From Candidatus Freyarchaeum deiterrae (lineage in GTDB: Archaea > Asgardarchaeota > Jordiarchaeia > Jordiarchaeales > Jordiarchaeaceae), in contig CP147778.1 of assembly GCA_037305845.1 (NCBI GenBank), positions 2,432,001 through 2,496,000 on the forward strand: a stretch of DNA of 64,000 bases, in the 5' to 3' direction. The notes under the pieces are model-generated. The model was not told the origin of the DNA and did no database searches. It was given only the letters and a program-made list of their open reading frames with translations. This document shows, piece after piece, positions 24,684 to 28,380 of this stretch. The translations under genes and the position numbers were made by a program. Within the stretch, counting starts at the first letter, position 1; each line of letters opens with the position of its first letter.

Positions 24684-25781
24684 TTGAAAGAATTGGAAGA
24701 ATGGCGACTCTTAGACTTGGACGCCTTACCCGCAACAGACACTCAAACCATATACGAGGCTGTCGCATCAGCCAGAAGCAAGAACCTTGTTCCCGAAACT
24801 CTCATACTCTGCTACCCCAAAAGTCCGCTAGTTTGTATAGGATATCACCAAGATTTAGAGAAGGAAGTAGATTACTCTTTTTGCCAGTCTCAGAGAATAC
24901 CAGTGGTTCGGAGAATCCTGGGTGGTGGAGCAGTGTACCTAGACCAGGGGCAACTCTTCTACCAAGTAATTATTGATAAGAAAAACCCCAAAGTTCCACT
25001 ATCAATAAATGATTTCTTTCGGAAGCTTCTAGAAGCACCCACAAAAACCTATCAGGAACTGGGTATCCCCGCGGTTTACAAGCCAATCAATGACATCGAA
25101 GTAGGCGGTAGAAAAATCAGCGGTAACGGTGCCGGCACTCTGGAAAATGTTGTAAACATAATGACTGGTAACATCATAATGGACTTCAACTTTGAAATGA
25201 TGGTGAAAATCCTAAAGGTTCCGAGTGAAAAATTCAGGGATAAAGTGGCGAAAAGCCTAGAGGAGCGAATGACCACCATAAAAAAGGAACTGGGACATGA
25301 GGTCCCCCTAGAAAAAATCAAATCGTTGCTCATAAAAAACTACGAGGAAACTCTAGATATAAAACTGCGAAAAGGAATGCTCAACGATTGGGAAAAGAAA
25401 ACCATGAGAGGCCTGAAAAAGAAATACCAATCCCAAGAATGGTTAAACATGGTATTTTTGCGTCATCCGGACCTAGCACGAAAAGTAAAAATTTCGAGCA
25501 TCGCATACGTTTCCGAATCCGCCTACAAAGCACCCGGAGGCCTAATCAGGGTCACCCTGAGGATAGATGAGGACAAAATAAAAGAAATAATGCTCAGTGG
25601 AGATTTCTTCATATATCCCGAGGACAAATTAAGCGAGCTAGAAAAAAGACTTACTGGGGTTCCCACCGATATAAGCGAAATAAATCAAGTTATCCAAACC
25701 TTTTACAAGGAAGAAAAAATAGAAACTCCCGGGGTAACCGCGCAGGACTTTCTAACAGCAATACGCCAAGCAACGGAGTGA
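24684..25781 (+). CDS. lplA: Lipoate-protein ligase (catalytic plus C-terminal accessory domain)
   Basis: 'VRRILGGGAVYLD', 'NDIEVGGRKISGNG', 'YKAPGGLIR..SGDFF'. Confidence 0.9.
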   Translation: MKELEEWRLLDLDALPATDTQTIYEAVASARSKNLVPETLILCYPKSPLVCIGYHQDLEKEVDYSFCQSQRIPVVRRILGGGAVYLDQGQLFYQVIIDKKNPKVPLSINDFFRKLLEAPTKTYQELGIPAVYKPINDIEVGGRKISGNGAGTLENVVNIMTGNIIMDFNFEMMVKILKVPSEKFRDKVAKSLEERMTTIKKELGHEVPLEKIKSLLIKNYEETLDIKLRKGMLNDWEKKTMRGLKKKYQSQEWLNMVFLRHPDLARKVKISSIAYVSESAYKAPGGLIRVTLRIDEDKIKEIMLSGDFFIYPEDKLSELEKRLTGVPTDISEINQVIQTFYKEEKIETPGVTAQDFLTAIRQATE

Positions 25782-25949
25782 AAAGTCAAGTTTTCTTTTT
25801 GAAAAAGAATACTCATTACTAAGAACCGTTTTTGAATTTCTGTTCAAAAATCAGACACATACAGTTCATAATTTTTTTAAATTTTGGTAATCTTTATTAT
25901 ACAGCGTTATCCTAATTGAACACTCAACCAAAAGTGGAGGTGTAAACGG

Positions 25950-27005
25950 CTGGAGAAGTATAGGTTAACTAAGGCAGTAACTCTTCATGGATGATCATGT
26001 AAACTACCTCAAACTGAACTGAATAACCTTCTAGAAAATGTCGGAGTGAGAAGAGACCCCTCAGGAAGACTAATTGGAGGAATCGGGGAAGACGCCGCCG
26101 TGGTCAAGATTCGGGATGATCTGGTACTCATAGAAACTGTTGATTACATGACCCCGAACGTTGATGATCCCTATATCCAGGGCAAGATTGCTGCGGTAAA
26201 CGTTACGAACGATGTGTATAGTGTAAATCTACTTGATTTACATGCATAAGCAATAGGCGCAACCGATGTTGTGAGCTTCTTAGCGATACTCGGAGTTCCT
26301 GAAAATATGCCTATTAAAATAGCTGAGGGAATGCTGAAGGGAATAAACGATTTACTAAGCGAACTGGGCACTACAACCATCACCGGCGGTCACACCATAA
26401 TAAATCCCTGGCCCTTAGTCGGAGGAGTGGCTTCAGGAATAGCTCATCCAGACCAGATAGTAACCCACAAGAATGCTCGACCCAACGATGTGGTGCTGCT
26501 TACTAAACCGCTGGGTACTCAGCCAGCGATGGCTTGTTATAGAGGACTCCTAGATCCCAGCGTCGCAGAGCAAATACTGGGATTAATGTCCAGAAAGGCA
26601 GCAGAAGAAATTGTTCAAAAGGGGATTGACATTATGACTAGGACAAATAAGCCGGTGGCTGAGGCGATGTCAGCTGTGAAACCTCATGCCTCTACAGATG
26701 TCACCGGATTCGGACTTCTCGGGCACTCTCGAAATTTAGCAGGTGAAAGCAAGGTTAACATTGACATTCACACAATTCCCATAATCAAAGGCACTTTGGA
26801 GCTTTCGGATCTTTTCGGATACGGACTTCAGTCTGGTGAGTCAGCGGAAACCGCGGGTGGAATGATTCTAATTGTTTCAGAAGACCAGAAGGAAAGCTTG
26901 GAATCAGAGTTGGACAAAGGTTCTGTTAATCACTACGAAATAGGTACCGTGAGGAAGGGGTCTGGAAAAGTTGATACCAGCAAGGCGGAAATACTTGAAG
27001 TTTGA
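25950..27005 (+). CDS. selD: Selenophosphate synthetase, selenoprotein, spliced: join(25950-26219, 26250-27005), 341 aa, Sec at codon 15 (TGA 25992-25994)
   Basis: From CTG 25950 (GGAGG at 25936-25940): EKYRLTKAVTLHG-U-SCKLP...GEDAAV...ETVDY...DPYIQGKIAAVNVTNDVY|AIGA...GGHT...LTKPLGT...TDVTGFGLLGH...ETAGG. The ORF track splits this into 26046-26249 and 26271-27005. Confidence 0.93.
26220..26249 (+). other. 30-nt BHB/BHL-type intron in selD
   Basis: GTGT-AT^A-gtgtaaatc-tactt-gatttacat-GCAT-AA^G. It ends in an in-frame TAA, and excision restores NDVYAIG (SelD 'SDxYAMG' motif). The outer exon helix is not well formed. Confidence 0.85.
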
Positions 27006-27008
27006 GCG

Positions 27009-27069
27009 GCAGTAATGATCTGAGGATTAAACCCTTATTTGGGAATCTAAAGAGAACATTCCATCCTGC
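27009..27069 (+). promoter_or_regulatory. SECIS element (eukaryote-like, AUGA/AAA/GA, with apical mini-stem) in selD 3'-UTR
   Basis: ATGA (27015-18), stem tct-ga-ggatt, AAA (27029-31), ccc-ttattt-ggg, aatct-aa-aga, GA (27054-55). Flanking gcag/ctgc can pair. It starts about 10 nt after the selD stop. Confidence 0.8.
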
Positions 27070-27353
27070 AAGGGTGGTGCCGCTACTCCAATCAATTTAC
27101 TTATACGAAAATTGTTTTTACTTTACTTTGAGAATATTTTCTTTAATCAAGCTTTATTCGTTATCTTTTAACAAATTTATGTTGATGCATCTACTAAATT
27201 GGGCTTATACAGCTTCTTTTAGCTCACAGTTGCCCCTTAAAGACTTTTTTCGGCGTTTTTTGGCACGTAAGAGTTAAATATAACATCACATCCAAGCTAC
27301 TGCGTTTAAAATAAATAAAAAAAATAGTGAGTGATAAAATAGAGGCGACTTGA

Positions 27354-27608
27354 ATGATTGACCCAACGATTATTCACGTGGCTCTCTTAGCGCTAGTCAT
27401 ATTCTTCGGCGTACTTGCTGTGGAACTTAAAAGACTTGATCACGCAGTAATAGCTTTTGCATCAATGAACGTTGTCTTAGGGGTTCTATTCTACCTACTC
27501 TACGCACCTTGGGTAGCAGTGTTTCAGTGGCTAATCTACGGAGGAGCAATAGTAGTTCTCCTACTAGTTACAGTAAGCCTCACAAGACAAGCACGTGAGA
27601 GTGAGTAA
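27354..27608 (+). CDS. NuoJ N-terminal-like / MbhD-like small membrane subunit
   Basis: 'L.HAVIAF...LLYAPWVAVFQWLIYGGAIVVL'. Confidence 0.8.
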   Translation: MIDPTIIHVALLALVIFFGVLAVELKRLDHAVIAFASMNVVLGVLFYLLYAPWVAVFQWLIYGGAIVVLLLVTVSLTRQARESE

Positions 27609-27610
27609 AA

Positions 27611-27949
27611 ATGAACAGAGAAACATTAATAAAAGCCACAAGAATAGCAATCGGCATAATTCTCGCAGCATTCGTCATAGTTATAGTACTTAAAGTATTC
27701 GTGGCATCTCCCTCTGCCTTTTATCCCTTCTACTTGACGCTTTTCAACCCAATGAACAACGCTACATTAACACAAGCTCCAGTTTGGCAAATAGCCTTCT
27801 ATGAAGGCAACTACCTATGGTCAAACAGAGTCATTGACACAATGTCTCTAGCTGTGGTATTTGTCGCCACAGGTCTCGGAGCAGCAATACTTCTTCGAGC
27901 AGAACCTGAAGAAAAAGAAACAGAAGAAGAAAAAGGAGCTGAACACTAA
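27611..27949 (+). CDS. Small membrane subunit (NuoJ C-terminal / MbhE-like)
   Basis: 2 TM with 'LW.NR.IDT' motif; lies within the operon. Confidence 0.7.
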   Translation: MNRETLIKATRIAIGIILAAFVIVIVLKVFVASPSAFYPFYLTLFNPMNNATLTQAPVWQIAFYEGNYLWSNRVIDTMSLAVVFVATGLGAAILLRAEPEEKETEEEKGAEH

Positions 27950-28380
27950 TGGCATTACCAGTATCCCCAGTATTATATCTGGCAACCGCGGCGATTCTCT
28001 ACGGAATCGGACTTTATGCAGTCGCGACCAAGAGAAACGTCATAAAAATTGTAATCGGTATCGAAGTCCTAGTTGCAGCAGCTCACCTGAACTTCATAGC
28101 TTTCTCAGCATACCGATGGTTCACCCTGTGGACGCAGCAAATATACTCTGTTCTCCAACTTGGCGGAATAACTGATCCATATCTAACAATTGTTGGATCA
28201 TACATTATGACTGCGAACTTCTACACACCCCTATTCGTAGACCCGCTCGCACACGTTTTCGTCATAATATCCATCGTCATCGGTGGCTGCGTAGTAGCAA
28301 TAGCCTTGTCATTCATAGTGAATCTCTACAAGCACTACGGCACACTGGACTCACAACAAATGAGAAAACTCAGATGGTAG
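27949..28380 (+). CDS. NuoK/MrpC-like subunit
   Basis: 'GIGLY....KRNVIKIVIGIEVL...HLNF', 'LYKHYGTLD...LRW'. Confidence 0.88.
   Translation: MALPVSPVLYLATAAILYGIGLYAVATKRNVIKIVIGIEVLVAAAHLNFIAFSAYRWFTLWTQQIYSVLQLGGITDPYLTIVGSYIMTANFYTPLFVDPLAHVFVIISIVIGGCVVAIALSFIVNLYKHYGTLDSQQMRKLRW

Follow-up and report, generated by a model that had tools for sequence, protein, structure and literature searches.

The stretch of DNA analyzed here (the window, 64,000 nucleotides in full) is part of the genome of Candidatus Freyarchaeum deiterrae, which is a single contig of 3,576,204 bp with 40.7% G+C (labelled G000 below), and it carries a selD gene, the gene for selenophosphate synthetase (SPS), whose reading frame is interrupted by 30 nucleotides (nt). 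Inspection of window positions 25700-27400, with 25890-27008 translated so that TGA reads as selenocysteine (Sec, U), revealed a SelD-like frame that begins after a TGA at 25917-25919, is broken by the 30-nt insert after ...N-D-V-Y and continues as A-I-G-A-T-D.... All features of the gene lie on the forward strand. Exon 1 (25950-26219, 90 codons) matches positions 4-90 of the NCBIfam profile NF010705, and exon 2 (26250-27005, 251 codons plus the stop codon TGA at 27003-27005) matches positions 91-342 of the 345 in the profile. Scored separately, the two exons reach 102.8 and 238.5 bits against a whole-protein cut-off of 291, and exon 2 by itself clears TIGR00476 (141.1 bits, cut-off 125). The Pfam domains AIRS and AIRS_C are both recognized, with positions 1-48 of the AIRS profile at the end of exon 1 and positions 49-111 at the start of exon 2. 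Since the profile coordinates run seamlessly over the junction, excising exactly 30 nt restores the protein with zero residues gained or lost.

A preliminary description of this locus had proposed that selD is expressed through three non-standard events, namely initiation at CUG, recoding of an in-frame UGA as selenocysteine and removal of an intron. For comparison, 40 relatives were searched with selD exon 2, and both exons were placed by tblastn. The order sample comprised 11 genomes (Jordarchaeales/Freyarchaeia type), ten of which are usable at the junction because the contig of G010 stops before it; six are of the host genus, and G006, G007, G008 and G009 form a second family. Six genomes from outside the order, with loci L016, L017, L019, L020, L021 and L024, served as an intron-less outgroup. 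The closest public homologues of exon 2 carry the source names Jordarchaeaceae, Jordarchaeales or Freyrarchaeum. When spliced in silico, the selD genes of all ten order genomes are a whole number of codons long and contain a single in-frame TGA each, and the ratio of nonsynonymous to synonymous substitution rates (dN/dS) of the spliced genes against the host gene is 0.05-0.10, at synonymous divergences (dS) of 0.9-2.5 within the genus. No second selD was found in the host genome, as the two other weak matches (~30 bits) are different AIRS-family proteins. The comparison of orthologues and the search for a further copy are therefore in keeping with the earlier proposal, whose features are conserved. 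Judged from these comparisons, selD is likely to be the single, functional selenophosphate synthetase gene of the host. The expectation that automated annotation would call the gene broken is also borne out, since the public gene calls of close relatives are proteins of 232-250 amino acids (aa) that correspond to exon 2 alone.

The 30-nt insert in selD

The insert occupies exactly positions 26220-26249, between the codons for NDVY and AIG, where a stop-containing intron of this length had been proposed, and it ends in TAA. Its minimum-energy fold, supported by covariation, is of the bulge-helix-bulge (BHB) type in the form designated HBh'. The exonic 5' strand of helix H, GUGU at 26214-26217, pairs with intronic GCAU at 26244-26247; a 5' bulge of three nucleotides (AU/A, 26218-26220) follows; and a stem h' of 9 bp (26221-26229 with 26235-26243), which encloses a loop at 26230-26234, lies within the intron. 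In the introns of cbf5, cleavage is reported to separate the second residue of the bulge from the third (PMC2738675), and this rule places the 5' cut after 26219; by the symmetry of the motif, the 3' cut is predicted after 26249 (AA/G), two bases past helix H. The predicted spliced junction (26219/26250) joins ...GATGTGTAT to GCAATAGGC..., and thereby GTG TAT to GCA. This junction alone keeps the frame together with the residues NDVY/A, and a shift by one base produces either TAA or a frameshift. A motif of such strength (4-bp helix H, 3-nt bulge and a stem of at least 9 bp) occurs in the host genome at about 3 per million position/length pairs, and the selD motif is not a chance occurrence, for its position and length are the only ones at which the frame is restored.

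An insert is present at the same codon in all ten order genomes that hold the junction, and the six outgroup genomes are contiguous at this site. Eight of the inserts measure 30 nt (those of the six genus genomes, G007 and G009), that of G006 measures 31 nt and that of G008 measures 34 nt; lengths of 31 and 34 nt make read-through impossible. All ten inserts share one fold, composed of exonic GUGU with intronic GCAY, a 3-nt bulge AYA and a hairpin h' of 8-9 bp, and the sequence of h' varies between families (GUGUAAAUC, GCGUAGCC, ACACAGCC, GCGCAGCC). Standard pairs fill 96.9% of the pair cells in the 10-genome alignment, versus at most 58.5% when the partners are slid, and compensatory changes on both sides are found in seven of the nine h' pairs. 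Helix H is paired in 100% of cells in the ten genomes, with one G-U to G-C change. Its exon half reads GTG TAY in every one of the ten intron-bearing genomes; in the intron-less outgroups, the same codons read CTC TAC, CTC TAT, GTG TTT, GTC TTT, GTA TTT or ATC TAT. Such freezing of GTG TAY, seen only where the intron is present, bears the mark of an RNA-structure constraint acting on synonymous sites.

The enzymes that such an intron would call upon are encoded in the host genome. EndA is represented by two paralogues (G000 1920673-1921311 and 1733138-1733752). The catalytic half of the fused-enzyme model is matched by one of them and its structural half by the other, a pair whose sequences would fit an alpha-beta heterotetramer, and RtcB is encoded as well (571 bits).

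Four points speak against this interpretation of the insert. The bases 5' of helix H showed no pairing with the 3' exon, where an outer exon-exon helix h would lie, so that the motif takes the relaxed HBh' form and not the strict hBHBh' form. The predicted 3' cut falls in an open strand and not in a closed 3-nt bulge. The relaxed form needs an EndA of broad specificity. Finally, no protein corresponding to the spliced form is found among close relatives in public databases, which is expected for DNA assemblies yet lends no support. With these points taken into account, the insert is very probably a conserved tRNA-type (BHB) intron in selD, as its sequence and its orthologues indicate, and the SelD enzyme would almost certainly require splicing of its mRNA by the tRNA-splicing enzymes. 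We infer cleavage and ligation of the selD pre-mRNA from the motif, its conservation and covariation, the genes for the machinery and purifying selection, all of which were established in silico.

The probable start codon and the leader

How does translation of an interrupted gene that has no canonical start codon begin? A Shine-Dalgarno sequence, GGAGGTG at 25936-25942, lies 7 nt before the CTG at 25950-25952, which is the probable start codon. The sequence TGGAGGTGT is invariant in the six genus genomes and complementary to the 3' tail of the host 16S rRNA (...GGATCACCTCC). The CTG is likewise invariant in these genomes despite the synonymous divergence given above; the gap between GGAGGTG and CTG is 7-8 nt within the genus, and TGGAGGTGT and CTGGA are constant on either side of a variable spacer. 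The preliminary description had noted GGAGG followed by CTG and the absence of in-frame ATG, GTG and TTG codons ahead of the UGA, and this is confirmed: in all six genus genomes, the frame is free of these three codons from the upstream stop to the Sec codon. In four of them (G002, G005, G001 and G004), an in-frame stop lies only 2-7 codons upstream of the CTG. This codon makes up just 14.8% of Leu codons in the long open reading frames (ORFs) of the host genome. The residues that follow it, L-E-x-Y-R-L-T, are conserved as protein, so that translation must begin at the CTG or just before it, and a start downstream of the Sec codon would remove the catalytic loop. A genome-wide tally of the codons that stand behind GGAGGTG comprised 254 sites only and was underpowered.

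Farther upstream, an A/T-rich promoter-like box, TTCATAATTTTTTTAAATTTTGG at 25865-25887, lies ~60-85 nt upstream of the CTG and is invariant at 17 of its 23 positions in the six genus genomes; from its sequence and position, it may act as the promoter of selD. A short hairpin (AGCGT...ACGCT type) that is semi-conserved in the genus occupies 25900-25930, just 5' of the Shine-Dalgarno sequence, and would lie near the 5' end of the predicted transcript.

Two considerations count against initiation at CUG. The first is that, to our knowledge, CUG is not an established start codon in archaea. The second is that in G009, G021 and G031, whose selD 5' ends are loci L012, L016 and L017, the position of the CTG is taken by TTA, 6 nt past a GGAGG-type motif. 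These three loci have an in-frame stop two codons upstream of the TTA and no canonical start before the Sec codon, and they may represent UUA initiation or another mode of starting selD.

An alternative hypothesis is that translation does not start at the CUG, and that a hidden 5' exon is instead joined through another micro-intron or that ribosomes reinitiate after a GUG-UAA mini-frame. The standing of CUG in archaea and the TTA of the sister lineages would both agree with this, and the host has many micro-introns. Moreover, G009 and five of the six genus genomes have a start-stop mini-frame, GTG TAA (25940-25945 in the window), that overlaps the end of the Shine-Dalgarno sequence. However, a search for BHB-like motifs that could join an upstream canonical start to the frame gave weak candidates only, each of which would delete the invariant Shine-Dalgarno sequence, and the conserved promoter-like box leaves a leader of just ~25-50 nt. 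The conservation of L-E-x-Y-R-L-T directly after the CTG and a Shine-Dalgarno spacing that is constant at 6-8 nt across lineages argue in the same direction. A start other than CUG therefore appears doubtful. Initiation at the CUG of 25950, as first proposed, is reasonably likely on the strength of an invariant codon, an invariant Shine-Dalgarno sequence and the nearby upstream stops.

Predicted selenocysteine insertion

The in-frame UGA at 25992-25994 is codon 15 of the gene and lies within HG-U-SCK (codons 13-18), at the Sec/Cys position of SelD, in keeping with the pattern G-U/C-x-C-K of its N-terminal catalytic loop. TGA is kept at this catalytic column in the nine other order genomes and in eight more distant Asgard loci, and L024 has TGC (Cys). 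Three genes of the Sec machinery are found within 10 kb of one another in the host genome: PSTK at 801757-802632 (215.6 bits), EFSec at 806595-808031 (TIGR00475, 300.5 bits) and SepSecS at 808006-809370 (518 bits). A candidate tRNA-Sec gene (L051; G000:C1:810418-810533, reverse strand) adjoins them in a cluster at 800-811 kb; its anticodon loop carries UCA, its variable arm is long, and it measures 116 nt in comparison with a model of 91 positions.

In its 3' untranslated region (UTR), selD carries a predicted selenocysteine insertion sequence (SECIS) at 27006-27083, closed by an outer stem (27006-27011 with 27078-27083; fold z-score -2.8). Its kink-turn-type core, at 27015-27056, consists of AUGA, a helix, AAA, a mini-hairpin, the returning helix and GA, with the letters ATGA at 27015-27018, AAA at 27030-27032 and GA at 27053-27054. 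A second hairpin with a GCAA-like loop (27061-27077) is nested in the outer stem. The SECIS that had been recognized after the stop codon is thus present and extends slightly past the end first given for it, 27069. In 15 Asgard genomes, the selD stop codon is followed by the same order of elements; (A/G)UGA is invariant among them, five of the six helix pairs show compensatory changes, and the predicted element matches the type-II-like SPS lokiSECIS of PMC4989117.

Two results weigh against this part of the account. The candidate tRNA-Sec scores only 27 bits against a cut-off of 47, probably because the gene is itself interrupted. ARAGORN and the Rfam tRNA model recover just 17 and 11 tRNAs, respectively, in this 3.58-Mb genome, a low tally that fits a heavy intron load and makes these finders of no use for calling tRNA-Sec directly. 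In addition, Rfam gave just two chance-level matches around selD at E-values up to 10 and none to a SECIS family, and at its gathering thresholds it gave zero matches in the whole window. A separate approach for SPS elements was likewise used by Mariotti 2016 (PMC4989117). For Freyarchaeia, PMC11291895 reports that the Sec machinery is complete, that SECIS elements are eukaryote-like and that SPS is a selenoprotein. From the conserved UGA, the conserved SECIS and a machinery in which EFSec, PSTK and SepSecS are accompanied by a sub-threshold tRNA-Sec candidate, we infer Sec insertion at 25992-25994, and the proposed recoding is thereby supported.

An ad-hoc pattern search for SECIS elements returned one plausible HdrA-like selenoprotein gene and missed selD itself, for which reason that search is not used as evidence. 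At G000:C1:1249442 (forward strand), an ATGA...AAA...GA element stands 15 nt past the stop of an ORF of ~650 aa that has an in-frame TGA in ...GVYVCE-U-GINIK...; from its sequence, this ORF is possibly the HdrA selenoprotein reported for Freyarchaeia in PMC11291895.

Genes around selD

The neighbors of selD on the same strand are GcvH and a lipoate-protein ligase upstream and NuoJ/K/L-like membrane subunits downstream, and the opposite strand at selD holds only short ORFs with no family matches. With a promoter-like box to itself and a long structured 3' UTR, selD looks monocistronic. Downstream, at window positions 27354-28380, a NuoJ-like ORF of 84 aa matches only positions 2-65 of a 146-position profile, a 112-aa ORF that has no family match comes directly after it, and a NuoK-like ORF in the same region extends ~40 residues beyond the length of its profile. 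These ORFs may be split or insert-bearing genes.

Other interrupted genes in the host genome

Is selD alone in carrying such an intron? A strict-geometry scan of the genome for frame-restoring BHB motifs, run with random and shifted controls, gave no genome-wide enrichment (~480 motifs per strand, versus ~500 in the controls), and its clear matches were selD, cbf5 and gatE. At the ppsA and pcm sites that were inspected, conserved motifs are interrupted in the host genome. The strict scan missed both genes, so that looser motifs escape it and the three clear matches are a lower bound. One candidate from the scan proved to be the adjacent genes CofD plus Dus and not an intron.

The cbf5 intron, of 32 nt and canonical hBHBh' form (L057:1416-1447, reverse strand, equal to G000:C1:1483415-1483446), splits the catalytic Asp codon between its first and second letters (GHSGTL/D-PKVTG), the same codon position as that of the crenarchaeal cbf5 intron (PMC2738675). 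All 11 order genomes and G021 have this intron (27-41 nt), and the remaining Asgard families in the sample lack it. Its exon helix is made by the Gly and Asp-Pro codons (GGGA/UCCC), a codon make-up that could favor repeated gain of an intron at this site. The gatE intron, of 30 nt and HBh' form, lies between ...YEIDE and TPPFD... (L058:2161-2190, reverse strand, equal to G000:C1:1472160-1472189). It too occurs in 11 of 11 order genomes (29-35 nt) and is absent from the other Asgard families sampled, although G021 probably has it as well, at ~41 nt. This GatB/GatE-family gene is probably gatE, a name that follows from its Pfam GatB_N domain and its length of ~640 aa.

Two further loci deserve mention. 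The 16S rRNA gene has ~32 extra nucleotides near its 3' end (G000:C1:1806465-1806496, forward strand), between ...GTAGGGGAA and CCTGCGGCTGGATCACCTCC, which are probably a mini-intron in the rRNA. A KTI12/PSTK-like frame with one internal TAG (L004; G000:C1:1307170-1307703, reverse strand) may be another interrupted gene.

The selD intron is thus one case of a lineage-wide habit and not a device specific to selD, being apparently accompanied by introns in cbf5, gatE and many more host genes.

Discussion

The sequence evidence makes it likely that splicing, CUG initiation and UGA recoding are combined in the single selD of this archaeon. In the mechanism that we propose, the selD pre-mRNA would fold locally into helix H (exonic GUGU with intronic GCAU), the bulge AUA and the 9-bp hairpin h'. 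A two-subunit EndA would cut after 26219 and after 26249, and RtcB would ligate the exons, so that 30 nt would be removed and ...N-D-V-Y/A-I-G... restored. Ribosomes would initiate at the CUG of 25950, positioned by the strong Shine-Dalgarno sequence 7 nt upstream, and the UGA at codon 15 would be read as selenocysteine by EFSec and Sec-tRNA(Sec), directed by the eukaryote-like SECIS of type II (kink-turn) that comes immediately after the stop codon. An unspliced mRNA would yield only a 99-residue fragment ending at the UAA of the intron. Because selD is single-copy, selenoprotein synthesis would depend on EndA and RtcB, and the dependence on the tRNA-splicing endonuclease that the preliminary description had put forward would follow.

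Could the insert be explained without splicing? If selD were a split gene, its exons would encode two polypeptides that assemble and the insert would be an intergenic hairpin. Such an arrangement would tolerate inserts whose lengths are not divisible by three, and a GTG is available eight codons into exon 2. However, exon 2 has neither a conserved start nor a Shine-Dalgarno sequence, its first canonical start being, depending on the genome, at codon 8, 8, 7 or 2 or missing from the first 10 codons, and the break falls inside the AIRS_N domain, in the conserved motif NDVYA(M/I/K)G. The exact BHB geometry of the insert, with its frame-restoring cut sites, and the frozen exon half of helix H also argue against two separate genes, and we consider a split selD very unlikely.

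A decaying pseudogene, in which the insert, the TGA and the missing start would all be lesions, would account for the two stops and the lack of a canonical start under the standard code, as well as for automated calls that consist of exon-2 fragments only. This explanation is hardly credible for a gene in which all three features are kept in genomes with saturated synonymous sites, the dN/dS values are low (0.05-0.10), each spliced coding sequence has one TGA and no further frame-breaking lesions, and the base-pairing of the insert is maintained by compensatory changes. It would, moreover, leave a genome with complete Sec machinery deprived of its sole selD. Translational hopping over the 30 nt, as in phage T4 gene 60, would dispense with RNA splicing altogether and could be served by the stable hairpin within the gap, but it is scarcely tenable. 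The take-off codon UAY is mismatched with the UAA or CAA at the end of the gap and is not followed by a stop, the geometry suits EndA cleavage, and EndA-dependent intron traffic in this genome is heavy. An error of assembly or sequencing can be set aside, as the insert occurs in 10 independently assembled genomes, including the single-contig genome of the host.

If selD is spliced in the way proposed here, does splicing regulate it? The preliminary description had suggested a splicing checkpoint stacked on the selenium feedback loop, which is speculation. Many other host genes seem to bear introns, and the selD intron therefore need not be a selD-specific regulator, which weakens the idea of a checkpoint. 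We can also picture a kinetic gate in which routine mRNA splicing by EndA and RtcB is at work in Jordarchaeales, the weak CUG and the slow UGA-Sec step let splicing precede the arrival of the first ribosome at the intron, and splicing capacity tunes selenoprotein output, so that the intron would be part of a real regulatory coupling and not neutral, an idea that we regard as improbable.

An intron of this kind has consequences beyond the gene itself. In these lineages selD is routinely called as a fragment, and surveys of selenoproteomes may score the pathway as incomplete. From the standpoint of evolution, the intron bears on how introns were tolerated in protein-coding genes before the spliceosome. 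By combining CUG, UGA recoding and splicing, this short gene also provides a compact test of the order of transcription, splicing and translation in a cell without a nucleus.

The closest precedent is the cbf5 pre-mRNA of Crenarchaeota (Desulfurococcales and Sulfolobales), whose BHB introns of 16-44 nt are processed by a heterotetrameric EndA (Watanabe 2002; Yokobori 2009, PMC2738675). Like these, the selD intron is short (30 nt), lies in coding sequence, contains no ORF and is conserved across the lineages that carry it, in parallel with a conservation across orders in cbf5, and the relaxed BHB form that it adopts is frequent among the crenarchaeal cases. Unlike these, it resides in a gene for a selenoprotein of the Sec pathway and in the Asgard phylum, and its splicing is predicted only. 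As of 2020, the cbf5 mRNA was the sole additional BHB intron reported in archaea, apart from a new case in a 5' UTR (PMC7714728). That case, HVO_1309 of Haloferax volcanii, is likewise an mRNA processed by the tRNA-splicing endonuclease; its intron lies in the untranslated leader, leaves the frame uninterrupted and was shown in vivo and in vitro, whereas the selD intron lies in the coding sequence and is predicted (PMC7714728).

The non-canonical introns described from tRNA genes in Freyarchaeia and Atabeyarchaeia (PMC11291895; bioRxiv 10.64898/2026.10.13.758758) share their group of organisms and class of motif with the selD intron, which is predicted to use the same enzymes. In PMC11291895, which presents a complete genome of Freyarchaeia from wetland soil, 92-95% of the tRNA genes are reported to be interrupted, in many cases at non-canonical positions; in the passages searched, introns are mentioned for tRNA genes only and the wording "start codon" is absent. 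The 2026 study of Asgard tRNA introns (bioRxiv 10.64898/2026.10.13.758758) does not treat mRNAs. At the other end of the gene, the predicted SECIS resembles the SPS lokiSECIS of Lokiarchaeota (PMC4989117) in its location in the 3' UTR of SPS/selD, its AUGA...GA kink-turn core, its apical adenines and its extra apical mini-stem; it differs in that the core is nested in an outer stem with a second hairpin, and both elements are predicted.

Our search of the literature turned up no publication on introns of selD or of coding genes in Asgard archaea. Among eukaryotes, the mRNAs of HAC1 and XBP1 also lose a short coding intron independently of the spliceosome, and in animals the exons are rejoined by RtcB. 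The cut in HAC1/XBP1 is made by Ire1 as a stress-regulated switch, whereas the cut in selD is predicted to be made by the tRNA endonuclease. Within archaeal coding sequence, documented tRNA-type introns belong to one gene family only, the cbf5 genes of Crenarchaeota, and selD is predicted to add another.

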